64,000 nt of DNA. Source: Escherichia coli. Lineage in GTDB: Bacteria > Pseudomonadota > Gammaproteobacteria > Enterobacterales > Enterobacteriaceae. Under the pieces are notes generated by a model, which saw nothing but the letters and a program-made list of their open reading frames with translations, was not told the DNA's origin and did no database searches. Position numbers and translations under genes: made by a program. Below are positions 43,265-57,626 of the stretch, piece by piece; position 1 is the stretch's first letter, and each line of letters starts with the position of its first letter. The DNA is taken from the NCBI RefSeq assembly GCF_046105845.1, contig NZ_CP151004.1; one strand, written 5' to 3'.

Positions 43265-45166
43265 ATGAAACTACAGAACTCTTTTCGCGACTATACGGCA
43301 GAGTCCGCGCTGTTTGTGCGCCGGGCGCTGGTCGCCTTTTTGGGGATTTTGCTGCTGACCGGCGTGCTTATCGCCAACCTGTATAATCTGCAAATTGTTC
43401 GCTTTACCGATTACCAGACCCGCTCTAATGAAAACCGCATTAAGCTGGTGCCTATCGCGCCCAGCCGCGGCATTATCTACGACCGTAACGGTATCCCTCT
43501 GGCCCTCAACCGCACTATCTACCAGATAGAAATGATGCCGGAGAAAGTCGATAACGTGCAGCAAACGCTGGACGCTTTGCGCAGCGTGGTAGATCTGACC
43601 GATGACGATATTGCTGCATTCCGAAAAGAGCGCGCACGTTCACACCGTTTCACCTCTATTCCGGTGAAAACTAACCTGACCGAAGTACAAGTAGCTCGCT
43701 TTGCCGTCAATCAGTACCGTTTTCCGGGTGTTGAAGTTAAAGGCTATAAACGTCGTTACTATCCTTACGGTTCGGCGTTGACCCACGTCATCGGCTATGT
43801 GTCGAAAATCAACGATAAAGACGTCGAACGCCTGAATAATGACGGCAAACTGGCCAACTATGCGGCAACGCATGATATAGGTAAGCTGGGCATTGAGCGT
43901 TACTATGAAGACGTGCTGCACGGTCAGACTGGTTATGAAGAGGTTGAAGTTAACAACCGTGGGCGTGTTATCCGCCAGTTAAAAGAAGTACCACCGCAAG
44001 CCGGACACGATATTTACCTGACGCTGGATCTCAAACTCCAGCAATATATTGAAACGCTGCTGGCGGGTAGCCGCGCAGCGGTGGTAGTCACCGATCCGCG
44101 TACAGGTGGGGTGCTGGCGCTGGTTTCCACGCCTAGTTATGACCCAAACCTATTTGTTGACGGTATCTCCAGCAAAGATTATTCCGCCTTGCTGAACGAC
44201 CCGAATACACCGCTGGTGAACCGCGCCACACAGGGGGTTTATCCTCCCGCGTCTACAGTTAAACCCTATGTGGCGGTTTCGGCATTGAGCGCCGGAGTGA
44301 TCACGCGCAATACGACGCTGTTTGACCCAGGCTGGTGGCAACTGCCAGGTTCGGAAAAACGTTATCGTGACTGGAAAAAATGGGGCCACGGGCGTCTGAA
44401 TGTCACAAGGTCGCTGGAAGAATCTGCGGATACCTTCTTCTATCAGGTGGCCTACGATATGGGAATCGATCGCCTCTCCGAATGGATGGGTAAATTCGGT
44501 TATGGTCATTACACCGGTATCGACCTGGCGGAAGAACGTTCCGGCAACATGCCTACCCGCGAATGGAAACAGAAACGCTTTAAAAAACCGTGGTATCAGG
44601 GTGACACCATTCCGGTTGGTATCGGTCAGGGTTACTGGACAGCGACCCCAATCCAGATGAGTAAGGCACTGATGATCCTGATTAATGACGGTATCGTGAA
44701 GGTTCCGCATTTGCTGATGAGCACCGCCGAAGACGGCAAACAGGTGCCATGGGTACAACCGCATGAACCGCCCGTCGGCGATATTCATTCCGGTTACTGG
44801 GAGCTGGCAAAAGACGGTATGTACGGTGTTGCTAACCGCCCTAACGGTACGGCGCATAAATACTTTGCCAGCGCACCGTACAAAATTGCGGCGAAATCTG
44901 GTACAGCTCAGGTCTTCGGTCTGAAAGCGAACGAAACCTATAATGCGCACAAAATTGCCGAGCGTTTACGTGACCACAAACTGATGACCGCCTTTGCGCC
45001 ATACAACAATCCGCAAGTCGCTGTCGCCATGATTCTGGAGAACGGCGGTGCGGGTCCGGCGGTTGGTACGCTGATGCGCCAGATCCTCGACCACATTATG
45101 CTGGGTGATAACAACACCGATCTGCCTGCGGAAAATCCAGCGGTTGCCGCAGCGGAGGACCATTAA
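43265..45166 (+). CDS. mrdA: Penicillin-binding protein 2 (633 aa)
   Basis: [36 protein letters not shown]..., STVK, SGN and KSGT transpeptidase motifs. Confidence 0.97.
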
Positions 45167-53549: not shown

Positions 53550-53933
53550 GTGTTACAACTTCTTTTAGCAGTTTTTATTGGCGGTGGTACGGGAAGCGTG
53601 GCGAGATGGCTGTTAAGTATGCGATTTAACCCGCTGCATCAAGCGATTCCGTTGGGGACGCTGGCTGCAAACCTGATTGGGGCATTCATCATAGGAATGG
53701 GATTCGCCTGGTTTAGCAGGATGACGAACATTGATCCAGTGTGGAAAGTATTAATCACCACCGGATTTTGTGGCGGTCTAACAACCTTCTCAACATTTTC
53801 GGCAGAAGTGGTGTTTTTGTTACAAGAGGGCCGCTTTGGCTGGGCGTTACTGAACGTTTTCGTCAACCTTTTGGGGTCTTTTGCTATGACCGCACTGGCT
53901 TTCTGGCTGTTTTCCGCCTCAACCGCACACTAA
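53550..53933 (+). CDS. crcB: Fluoride channel Fluc/CrcB (127 aa)
   Basis: [58 protein letters not shown]..., TTFSTF motif. Confidence 0.95.
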
Positions 53934-53938
53934 AGACC

Positions 53939-53967
53939 AAAAAAAACCCGCTGATTAAGCGGGTTTT
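53939..53967. terminator. Bidirectional rho-independent terminator shared by convergent crcB and cspE
   Basis: aaaaaaaaCCCGCTgattaAGCGGGtttt. Confidence 0.7.
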
Positions 53968-53986
53968 GAATTCTTGCTGACGTATC

Positions 53987-54196
53987 TTACAGAGCGATTA
54001 CGTTTGCAGCAGAAGGGCCTTTGGCACCGTTAGTGATTTCGAACTCTACGCGCTGACCTTCAGCAAGAGTTTTAAAACCATTAGTCTGGATTGCAGAGAA
54101 GTGTACGAACACGTCTTTGCTGCCGTCTTCCGGAGTAATGAAACCGAATCCTTTGGACTCATTAAACCACTTAACGTTACCTTTAATCTTAGACAT
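53987..54196 (-). CDS. cspE: Cold-shock-family protein CspE (69 aa)
   Basis: ORF 53987..54280; internal ATG 54196 gives [69 protein letters not shown]. Confidence 0.97.
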
Positions 54197-54370
54197 CAAA
54201 ATTACCTTTACATGAAAAATAGACACAAATGCTGTGTCGGTTACCAGTACACCAATTGTGGTACGCTTTGTCCAGTGCAACTTTACTAAAAAGTGATAAA
54301 AGTCGCGTTATTTTTGATGTTAATTATTTTACCCATTGATTTTAAAGAGTTTACTAAAATTTCATTTGTC

Positions 54371-54931
54371 TCAAAACTGAAAGCGCATCCAGGCAAAGTA
54401 CACATTGCCATTGTTATAGGTACCCGGAATGTAGGTCATCTGAAAAGTCACTGGACCATAACCCACAGAGGCCAATGGCAGTAGAACCGGGAGAGGGATG
54501 TAATTCCAGTTATCGCGTGCCGTTACGCCAGCGGTGAATCCCAGTCCTAAATGAAAATTTTCATCTGCCAGCGGTCGCCAGGTACTTTCCCATCCGTATC
54601 CGGCAATCGGTTCCCATTTGTTCCACGAGTCCTTAAATGCCATGGCATACAGGCCATGCCAGTTTCCTTTTTCATCCCAACGCGACTGACCAAAACCGCC
54701 ACCCCACGGTCGCTCGTTATAGCGATCGGTTTTTTCTTTGTCGTAAGCGAAACGAGCATGCCAGGTGATGGCAGGAATATATAAATCATAATGTTCAGGC
54801 TGTTGCCAGGTTTGTGTAATATTTTCTCCAAACGTTGTCATCCACTCATCTGCGTTAGCAAAAACTTTACCAACGCTGATTAACTGAATAAAAACAAAGG
54901 AAAAGATAGCGACATATTTACTCACGTTCAT
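54371..54931 (-). CDS. pagP: Lipid A palmitoyltransferase PagP (186 aa)
   Basis: ORF 54371..54955; ATG 54931 gives [64 protein letters not shown]... Confidence 0.95.
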
Positions 54932-55415
54932 TTGTGACCATAAAACATTTATCAAAAATCTACTACTAGCATAGCAAAGCTACAATTAACATAACCTTAA
55001 TAGCCCCAACATAAAGAATAATCTGAATAGCTGCTCTATTTATTTCCGCTTGTTTAAGTTAAATATTTCCGCGCATCGATTAAAGATGATGCGTCGTTTT
55101 CTGCGATGGGAATAGTCAAAAAAGAAAAACCAAGTCTTTTTTGATGACAAAATGCAACCAAGAAAAAATTACTTTATTTTTAATAAGATACAAAAAATTC
55201 CTTAACGAAAAATATATTATATATCGTCAACCCATGATCATGGTAGATTATTTTTTGAGCGCACACCCGCGGCTAACACCATTGCAATTAACAAATTTGC
55301 ATCAATCCACCATCAATTTACACACATTATTATGTGATAATTGCCAACCGCTAAATATGCGTTTTGTTATCTATGTATAAAAACAGCAACTTCAATGTCT
55401 TAATGGCAGTTTTTC

Positions 55416-55429
55416 TTGATTTTAATCAG
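55416..55429. promoter_or_regulatory. Candidate FNR site upstream of dcuC
   Basis: TTGATtttaATCAg, close to TTGAT-N4-ATCAA, about 95 bp upstream of the dcuC ATG. Confidence 0.35.
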
Positions 55430-55519
55430 CATTCACCGCCAATTTATTGGGCATATTTTTTTCCTTAAGCTTTAGGAATTTTTTATTATTTACTTTGGGG
55501 CCTGGAGACAGGAAAAATT

Positions 55520-56905
55520 ATGCTGACATTCATTGAACTCCTTATTGGGGTTGTGGTTATTGTGGGTGTAGCTCGCTACATCATTAAAGGGTATTCCGCC
55601 ACTGGCGTGTTATTTGTCGGTGGCCTGTTATTGCTGATTATCAGTGCCATTATGGGGCACAAAGTGTTACCGTCCAGCCAGGCTTCAACAGGCTACAGCG
55701 CCACGGATATCGTTGAATACGTTAAAATATTGCTAATGAGCCGCGGCGGCGACCTCGGCATGATGATTATGATGCTGTGTGGCTTTGCCGCTTACATGAC
55801 CCATATCGGCGCGAATGATATGGTGGTCAAGCTGGCGTCAAAACCATTGCAGTATATTAACTCCCCTTACCTGCTGATGATTGCCGCCTATTTTGTCGCC
55901 TGTCTGATGTCTCTGGCCGTCTCTTCCGCGACCGGTCTGGGTGTTTTGCTGATGGCAACCCTGTTTCCGGTGATGGTAAACGTTGGTATCAGCCGTGGTG
56001 CAGCTGCTGCTATTTGTGCCTCCCCGGCGGCGATTATTCTCGCACCGACTTCAGGGGATGTGGTGCTGGCGGCGCAGGCTTCCGAAATGTCGCTGATTGA
56101 CTTCGCCTTCAAAACGACGCTGCCTATCTCAATTGCTGCAATTATCGGCATGGCGATCGCCCACTTCTTCTGGCAACGTTATCTGGATAAAAAAGAGCAC
56201 ATCTCTCATGAAATGTTAGATGTCAGTGAAATCACCACCACTGCTCCTGCGTTTTATGCCATTTTGCCGTTCACGCCGATCATCGGAGTGCTGATTTTTG
56301 ACGGCAAATGGGGTCCGCAATTACACATCATCACTATTCTGGTGATTTGTATGCTGATTGCCTCCATTCTGGAGTTCATCCGCAGCTTTAATACCCAGAA
56401 AGTTTTCTCTGGTCTGGAAGTGGCTTATCGCGGGATGGCAGATGCGTTTGCTAACGTGGTGATGCTGCTGGTTGCCGCTGGGGTATTCGCTCAGGGGCTT
56501 AGCACCATCGGCTTTATTCAAAGTCTGATTTCTATCGCCACCTCGTTTGGTTCGGCGAGTATCATCCTGATGCTGGTATTAGTGATCCTGACAATGCTGG
56601 CGGCAGTCACGACCGGTTCAGGCAATGCGCCGTTTTATGCGTTTGTTGAAATGATCCCGAAACTGGCGCACTCTTCCGGCATTAACCCGGCGTATTTGAC
56701 TATCCCAATGCTGCAGGCGTCAAACCTCGGTCGTACCCTGTCACCCGTTTCTGGCGTAGTCGTTGCGGTTGCCGGGATGGCGAAAATCTCACCATTTGAA
56801 GTCGTAAAACGCACCTCGGTGCCGGTGCTTGTTGGTTTGGTGATTGTTATCGTTGCTACAGAGCTGATGGTGCCAGGAACGGCAGCCGCGGTCACAGGCA
56901 AGTAA
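55520..56905 (+). CDS. dcuC: Anaerobic C4-dicarboxylate transporter DcuC (461 aa)
   Basis: ORF MLTFIELLIGVVVIVGVARYIIKGYSATGVLFVGGLLLLIISAIMGHKVL..., polytopic membrane protein. Confidence 0.95.
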   Translation: MLTFIELLIGVVVIVGVARYIIKGYSATGVLFVGGLLLLIISAIMGHKVLPSSQASTGYSATDIVEYVKILLMSRGGDLGMMIMMLCGFAAYMTHIGANDMVVKLASKPLQYINSPYLLMIAAYFVACLMSLAVSSATGLGVLLMATLFPVMVNVGISRGAAAAICASPAAIILAPTSGDVVLAAQASEMSLIDFAFKTTLPISIAAIIGMAIAHFFWQRYLDKKEHISHEMLDVSEITTTAPAFYAILPFTPIIGVLIFDGKWGPQLHIITILVICMLIASILEFIRSFNTQKVFSGLEVAYRGMADAFANVVMLLVAAGVFAQGLSTIGFIQSLISIATSFGSASIILMLVLVILTMLAAVTTGSGNAPFYAFVEMIPKLAHSSGINPAYLTIPMLQASNLGRTLSPVSGVVVAVAGMAKISPFEVVKRTSVPVLVGLVIVIVATELMVPGTAAAVTGK

Positions 56906-56945: not shown

Positions 56946-57626
56946 TCACCCACTGTGGTATATGCGTTGCGGTCTGCCAACTTTGCCGTGAACAATTTCA
57001 GCAATAATCAGATGGCGGCTGGCGCAATATTCAAGATAACGTCTGGCAGTGGTGCGGCTGATAGTCAGTGCCTGCGCCACCGTTTCTGCCGTATGTTGCA
57101 CACCAGGCTCTTTAAACAGTTTTCGCACTGCGTTTAGCGTCAAGGGGTCAATGCCGGTCGGCAGTTCGTCTTTGGGTTCACCGCGAGCATAGGCATTAAA
57201 CATCTCATCAATTTGCTTCTGGCTGGCGCTATCAATACTTTCCAGCATATGTTTACGCTGGCGGAAACGGGTTAGCGTTTGCCCCAGCCGTTCATAGGCA
57301 ATTGGCTTAATGAGATAATCAAATACACCACAACGTACGGCTTCAGACACCGTTTCCATATCGCTGGCTGCAGTGGTAAACACCACGTCGCCGGGATAAT
57401 GCGTCTGCACCAGTTCATGCAGTAAATTAATCCCTCTACCGTCAGGAAGATAGTTATCGAGCAAGATTAGCCCCGGCTTAAAACGCTCGATCATCATTCG
57501 GGCCTGCGCCAGGTTTCCCGCCAGTAATATCTGACTGAATCCGGGAATGTGACGAATATATTCCGCATGCATCTCTGCCAGCGGCGTTTCGTCCTCAACG
57601 ATCAATAGGGTTAATGGAGCTGTCAT
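56946..57626 (-). CDS. dpiA: Response regulator DpiA (CitB), 226 aa
   Basis: ORF MTAPLTLLIVEDETPLAEMHAEYIRHIPGFSQILLAGNLAQARMMIERFKPGLILLDNYLPDGRGI... Confidence 0.95.
   Translation of the reverse strand: MTAPLTLLIVEDETPLAEMHAEYIRHIPGFSQILLAGNLAQARMMIERFKPGLILLDNYLPDGRGINLLHELVQTHYPGDVVFTTAASDMETVSEAVRCGVFDYLIKPIAYERLGQTLTRFRQRKHMLESIDSASQKQIDEMFNAYARGEPKDELPTGIDPLTLNAVRKLFKEPGVQHTAETVAQALTISRTTARRYLEYCASRHLIIAEIVHGKVGRPQRIYHSG

Follow-up and report, generated by a model that had tools for sequence, protein, structure and literature searches.

The element TTGATTTTAATCAG, which occupies positions 55416–55429 of a 64,000-nt stretch of Escherichia coli DNA (analysed as a whole and referred to here as the window), is the already-known FNR site of dcuC, and its assignment is correct but ordinary. 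FNR is an oxygen-labile, dimeric [4Fe-4S] activator of the CRP/FNR family. We hold with high confidence that the element constitutes the FNR operator of the dcuC promoter, most likely in a class II architecture with the activator centred at about −41.5. In vivo occupancy by FNR as well as FNR-dependent expression of dcuC have been shown by published work for the identical sequence of E. coli K-12. The contribution of the present analysis is a phylogenetic footprint that points to a probable −10 element and start site, both left unassigned by databases and by the ChIP study; the conservation of the weak, non-consensus half-site itself is likewise new.

The FNR site and its occupancy in vivo

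The region of the window that harbors the element corresponds to K-12 b0620–b0624 on the opposite strand and carries crcB (+), cspE (−), pagP (−), dcuC (+), and dpiA (56946–57626, −) in this order. The spacer in question is bounded by the divergently transcribed pagP gene for lipid A palmitoyltransferase (54371–54931, − strand; identified as an open reading frame, by the annotation of K-12 b0622 and by alignment) and by the coding sequence of dcuC (55520–56905, + strand), which encodes an anaerobic C4-dicarboxylate transporter of 461 amino acids according to its open reading frame, the RefSeq annotation of matching E. coli genomes and K-12 b0621. A probable Shine-Dalgarno sequence, AGGA (55510–55513, + strand), precedes the dcuC ATG by 6 nt, and the upstream alignment reveals that a GACAGGrGAAA block before the ATG is kept in most genera. 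From the pagP ATG at 54931 to the dcuC ATG at 55520, the spacer measures 588 bp (54932–55519) rather than the 560 bp given in the first-pass annotation, a minor error in an otherwise apt description of AT-rich DNA (GC content of 31.5% versus ~50% in the flanking genes). When a 661-nt spacer query was compared with 5,426 complete E. coli genomes, 5,409 of them matched, with identities that range from below 90% to above 99% and reach 99.8% in the best match. Relative to K-12 MG1655, the pagP–dcuC spacer is ~97% identical and the FNR element is unchanged. The differences between the two strains cluster at 55205–55260, where ~15 substitutions and one indel fall within 55 nt, and the remainder is nearly identical.

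The FNR-like half-sites that had been noticed upstream of dcuC are present on the + strand at 55416–55429 and agree with 9 of the 10 specified bases of TTGAT-N4-ATCAA. The element is a near-palindrome, listed here without a strand, whose promoter-proximal half reads ATCAG and not ATCAA; its assignment draws on sequence, matrix score, identity to K-12, the published ChIP listing, and conservation. With its centre (55422.5) 97.5 nt and its 3′ end 90 nt before the dcuC ATG, the distance of about 95 bp that had been attributed to it is fair. One-mismatch matches to TTGAT-N4-ATCAA occur three times in the window, compared with 2.43 expected. For the matrix scan proposed in the first-pass annotation, an FNR matrix was built from 62 other ChIP-bound FNR sites (Myers et al. 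2013, Table S6). The dcuC motif emerged as the top match in the 64 kb with 11.66 bits, a score lower than that of every one of the 62 ChIP-bound sites composing the matrix. In random sequence of the same length, about 2.6 equal or better matrix matches are expected; when the spacer is shuffled, the score of the motif is attained in 8% of cases (P ~0.08). By itself, the sequence match is not significant and does not go beyond chance. The next-best matches to the FNR matrix, TTGACCCACGTCAT (43778–43791, 11.56 bits) and TTGATGTTAATTAT (54314–54327, 11.18 bits, in the interval that separates cspE from the 3′ end of pagP), have scores at the level expected by chance.

Taken alone, these frequencies of one-mismatch, matrix and shuffled-spacer matches would be compatible with a fortuitous match in AT-rich DNA that lacks any regulatory role, in which case the control of dcuC by FNR would be indirect. 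However, the identical sequence of K-12 is covered by an FNR ChIP-seq peak, and the core bases of the motif are invariant over ~20 genera whose flanking sequences have diverged. Because of the ChIP-seq data and this conservation, a chance match is effectively refuted and retains next to no probability. The motif is regarded as real on account of its position, its conservation and the published binding data, and not of its match score.

Regulation of dcuC by FNR is said to have been first reported by Zientz et al. in 1999 (J Bacteriol 181:3716). Later, Table S6 of Myers et al. 2013 (PLoS Genet, PMC3688515) gave a predicted FNR site, CTGATTAAAATCAA, at 655,281 for dcuC/pagP and marked it as covered by a peak of anaerobic FNR ChIP-seq; this sequence is the reverse complement of the 14-mer in the window. 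The listed site has a PatSer score of 12.38 (ln p of −10.96) and does not overlap with H-NS, IHF, or Fis enrichment (PMC3688515). In current K-12 coordinates the motif maps to 656,058–656,071, which corresponds to 655,281–655,294 in the older genome version if the two are offset by 777 nt, a value deduced from the shared 14-mer and its gene label. The summit of the FNR peak, which contains one site, was placed at 655,298 (Myers Table 1, PMC3688515), ~10 nt from the motif centre. The same table assigns dcuC to Category 1, i.e., direct activation by FNR, reports that sigma-70 occupancy and expression are both higher without oxygen, and gives earlier evidence for FNR binding as 'None' (PMC3688515). 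In RNA-seq, the ratio of fnr mutant to wild type amounts to 0.0498 for dcuC, a 20-fold loss (PMC3688515). In agreement with these data, the anaerobic induction of a single-copy dcuC-lacZ fusion is lost in an fnr mutant (Oberto et al. 2009, PMC2634741). The gene has also been reported as a non-target of DcuS-DcuR (PMC10636207). Neither mutagenesis nor a footprint of the dcuC FNR site was found in the literature, and the Fnr/ArcA ChIP-exo supplements of Federowicz 2014 hold no entry for dcuC.

CRP and FNR sites are related, and the orthologous site of Salmonella arizonae, GTGATTTTAATCAG, displays a CRP-like GTGA in one of its halves; both observations could be taken to mean that another protein of the CRP/FNR family, e.g., CRP, is the main binder instead of FNR. 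In contrast, 35 of the 36 orthologues retain the FNR-specific TTGAT, the four nucleotides between TTGAT and ATCA are the spacing that the common 22-bp frame takes in FNR sites, and the documented FNR ChIP enrichment together with the 20-fold drop in dcuC expression upon loss of fnr (PMC3688515) speaks for FNR, making a different main binder highly improbable. The anaerobic activation of dcuC by FNR, as anticipated in the first-pass annotation, is supported by the ChIP-bound identical 14-mer, by RNA and lacZ measurements that depend on fnr, and by conservation of the site in each of the 36 orthologous regions.

Phylogenetic footprint and predicted core promoter of dcuC

Conservation was assessed with a one-genome-per-species scan that returned 80 loci encoding DcuC at 86–100% identity. 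The 300 nt upstream of the ATG were aligned for 36 sequences from ~20 genera, and columns were scored without gaps, anchored on the site, in 26 sequences picked to cut redundancy. The FNR site is kept in all 36 aligned upstream regions of Enterobacteriaceae, its TGAT and TCA being invariant, and constitutes the best match to the FNR matrix in 35 of them; the mean column identity of the whole upstream alignment is only 36%. Within the ~100–135 nt around the site, strong conservation is confined to two islands, the FNR site and a GGCAyATT block, the rest having diverged. The first island, TTTnTTGATttnnaTCAGCA, extends over 55412–55431 (+ strand), i.e., beyond the site itself, with flanking TTT (55412–55414) conserved to 88–92% and CA (55430–55431) to 77%. 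The second island, TTnGGCAyATT (55447–55457, + strand), shows column conservation of 0.88–1.00 except at 55449 and 55454; T55447, A55455, and T55456 are invariant, and G55450, G55451, A55453, and T55457 are conserved to at least 92%. A pattern combining both islands, TTGAT-N5-TCA-N(20-22)-GCANAT, matches 77 of 81 loci, and each match spans exactly 41 nt (N21) although 40–42 nt were allowed. Despite this fixed spacing between the site and GGCAyATT, the distance from the site to the ATG varies between 89.5 and 156.5 nt. Two loci, L029 (Atlantibacter sp.) and L065 (Citrobacter freundii M-21), share a distinct upstream region with TTGATATTwATCAG as the site and CACAAT replacing GGCACAT. Such loci may belong to a separate lineage of dcuC, or to a paralogue, in which an FNR site is also kept. 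Two other interpretations were ruled out: the conserved GGCAC is not followed by GC 10 nt downstream, as a sigma-54 promoter would require, and AATCAGCA is missing the TTR part of the IHF consensus.

The second island holds a predicted weak −10 hexamer, CATATT (55452–55457, + strand; CACATT in most genera), which is proposed on the basis of its conservation and spacing. From the end of the FNR site (55429) to CATATT there are 22 nt, the geometry of a hexamer at −12 to −7 combined with FNR at −41.5, and the hexamer keeps A at its second and T at its sixth position, both conserved to at least 92%. The −35 position reads GCATTC. A two-hexamer sigma-70 promoter was not detected in 54850–55600, as expected for a promoter that depends on an activator. 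Since the −10-like CATATT sits where class II activation by FNR from −41.5 requires it, a FNR-dependent start is predicted near 55464 (55463–55466, + strand; centre of the site at 55422.5 plus 41.5, together with the position of the −10 hexamer), which would give rise to a 5′ untranslated region of ~56 nt. For dcuC, the assignment of a −10 hexamer, a start position and class II geometry is inferred from sequence, and such an arrangement has precedents: most of the directly activated operons in Table 1 of Myers et al. carry FNR sites at −38.5 to −42.5 (PMC3688515), and Federowicz et al. 2014 described genome-wide activation by Fnr from −41.5.

According to the mechanism proposed here, holo-FNR would dimerise when oxygen is absent and bind TTGAT-N4-ATCAG. 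From a class II position with its centre at about −41.5, where it overlaps with the −35 region, bound FNR would then recruit sigma-70 RNA polymerase to a promoter with no usable −35 element and a weak −10 hexamer, CATATT, and transcription of dcuC would start near 55464. Its product, DcuC, serves succinate export and C4-dicarboxylate exchange in fermentation, hence the coupling of its synthesis to anaerobiosis.

No anaerobically mapped start site of dcuC was found in the literature. In the FNR ChIP-seq study of Myers et al. 2013 (PMC3688515), the dcuC entry bears the remark 'TSS not in peak region', and the start-site tables of Kim 2012, searched by gene name and coordinate prefix, list no start in the dcuC–pagP spacer. 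The sole 5′ end on record for dcuC stems from Mendoza-Vargas et al. 2009 (PMC2760140) and lies at 55482 (+ strand), with 38 nt separating it from the ATG downstream. It was obtained by 454 sequencing, presumably of aerobic cells, with 4 reads and was accompanied by a proposed low-scoring −10 given as 'tttcCTTAAGCTttag' (PMC2760140). Transcription from 55482 would place FNR at −59.5, a position that is neither canonical nor clearly incompatible with activation, and the sequence around 55482 is not conserved outside Escherichia. At class I promoters of the CRP/FNR type, the canonical helical face is that of −61.5. Activation from the same FNR site might accordingly be class I-like, with a start at ~55482 and FNR near −59.5 to −61.5 contacting the alpha C-terminal domain. 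The recorded 454 end, for which a −10 was proposed at CTTAAGCT (PMC2760140), would fit this geometry, and FNR-regulated operons with sites at −56.5 and −60.5 exist (Myers Table 1, PMC3688515). However, the end is represented by just those few reads and its −10 scores low, −59.5 is ~2 bp off the canonical helical face, and conservation of the stretch 55460–55485 is limited to Escherichia, whereas the GGCAyATT block retains the position required for class II activation, at fixed spacing, in 77 of the 81 loci. Class I-like activation is unlikely on these grounds, and the class II arrangement with a start near 55464 is preferred.

One feature of the operator departs from the general FNR pattern. 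The outer G of ATCAG, G55429, occurs in none of the 62 other ChIP-bound sites of Table S6, a comparison that is partly biased because a site had to exceed a certain matrix score to be included in this table. Among the dcuC orthologues, the same G is conserved in 33 of 36 sequences, the three exceptions being T, and the CA that follows at 55430–55431 is likewise conserved. Conservation of ATCAG suggests that selection favours a half-site purposely kept below the optimum, or acts on another element overlapping this half-site. The core promoter of dcuC might, on this basis, carry more than a plain FNR site and a −10 element, be it a weak site that is purposely kept, or an additional factor or atypical RNA polymerase contact overlapping the core promoter. 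The features behind such a reading, all seen across ~20 genera, are the G of ATCAG with the subsequent CA, the GG before the −10 hexamer, and the fixed distance at which the GGCAyATT block follows the site; we nevertheless consider it doubtful that extra information of this kind is present. If the weak FNR site were kept deliberately, a high threshold of active FNR would be set for dcuC.

Further signals in the pagP–dcuC spacer

The only oxygen-responsive sigma-70 ChIP-seq peak in the spacer was recorded at 655,742, with values of 37 under aerobic and 366 under anaerobic conditions (Myers et al. 2013, Table S2, PMC3688515). This position corresponds to ~54969 in the window, ~38 bp ahead of the start codon of pagP and away from the dcuC promoter; the location of the sole oxygen-responsive peak beside pagP counts against the proposed dcuC promoter. 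Control of pagP is exerted by PhoP. Scans for PhoP boxes in the spacer returned only matches with 2–3 mismatches, none of which was convincing. The promoter region of pagP also contains an ArcA-like direct repeat, TATTAAGGTTATGTTA (54987–55002, − strand), with one mismatch to TGTTA-N6-TGTTA, and this repeat fits the ArcA matrix match upstream of dcuC/crcA, devoid of ChIP binding, that was described by Park et al. 2013.

The anaerobic signals at pagP raise the question of whether the dcuC FNR site acts bidirectionally and also controls the divergent gene. Expression of pagP (crcA) in the fnr mutant drops to 0.29 of the wild type by RNA-seq, and the rise in sigma-70 occupancy described above occurs next to this gene (PMC3688515). 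Yet the FNR site is ~490 bp away from the pagP ATG and ~455 bp away from the sigma-70 peak, far beyond known distances for activation by FNR, and the ArcA-like repeat at the pagP promoter provides an indirect route to the same response. Direct action of the FNR site on pagP over ~490 bp is unlikely, and we attach very little probability to bidirectional control.

Apart from the FNR site and its associated block, the spacer contains several elements of less certain relevance. A 79-codon open reading frame at 55141–55380, which the first-pass annotation had already called dubious, begins with TTG and has a GC3 of 0.33 compared with 0.59 for dcuC. It was ruled out as a gene since a 1-nt indel shifts the frame in K-12, where a stop is encountered at codon 22. 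Among the best 10 of the 5,409 matching E. coli genomes, only pagP and dcuC are annotated under the spacer match. A search of 53900–55700 against Rfam, with E values up to 1, returned nothing in the spacer, all matches being confined to the cspE leader/terminator region. The cspA thermoregulator family RF01766 was found there at 53939–54297 (− strand; 123 bits, E = 1.4e-32), over the cspE leader and gene, a match to be expected because cspE is a paralogue of cspA. The middle part of the spacer also holds GCGCATCGATTAAAGATGATGCGT, a terminator-like hairpin with the T-run CGTTTTCTGC behind it (55071–55094, + strand), which has no Rfam match. It was set aside: the hairpin is identical in K-12, partial in one close Escherichia lineage, and absent from more distant ones.

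For dcuC of K-12, a constitutive sigma-70 promoter, ATGACA-17-AATTAT, was predicted by Shimada et al. 2014, who also reported H-NS binding in the spacer. In the window, this promoter corresponds to ~55144–55172 (+ strand), where the −10 element reads AATTAC; having lost the final T of its −10 element, the constitutive promoter is unlikely to matter in this strain. A third conserved island, ATTAACAAATTTGCATCAA, is located at 55302–55320, ~110 bp upstream of the FNR site, and its ATTAACA...CATCA is retained in Escherichia, Citrobacter, and several Enterobacter sequences.

Comparison with known FNR-dependent promoters

Beyond correct annotation, the importance of these findings is small: they would round off what is recorded on one of the minor genes of the anaerobic regulon. 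Compared with the dcuC FNR site of K-12, the 14-mer is identical, and the sequence from the site to the ATG is identical except for one base change and a 1-nt difference in a T-run. The neighbourhood of pagP, dcuC, and dpiA is also the same, i.e., this is the same element in another strain, with no functional difference.

In its organization, the dcuC promoter resembles the class II promoters of narG, nirB, dmsA, and pfl (P6), featuring a single FNR site, no −35 hexamer, and a weak −10 element after 22 nt, and its expression is likewise anaerobic and dependent on FNR. Unlike in these examples, the class II start of dcuC is a predicted one, and the promoter-proximal half-site ends in G (ATCAG). 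The carrier gene dcuB needs DcuS-DcuR. Like dcuC, dcuB-fumB comprises an anaerobic C4-dicarboxylate carrier gene that is directly activated by FNR (Myers Table 1, PMC3688515). However, the top-scoring FNR site of dcuB resides at −132.5 (Myers Table 1, PMC3688515), and dcuC, in contrast to dcuB, appears to have a simple, proximal FNR site.
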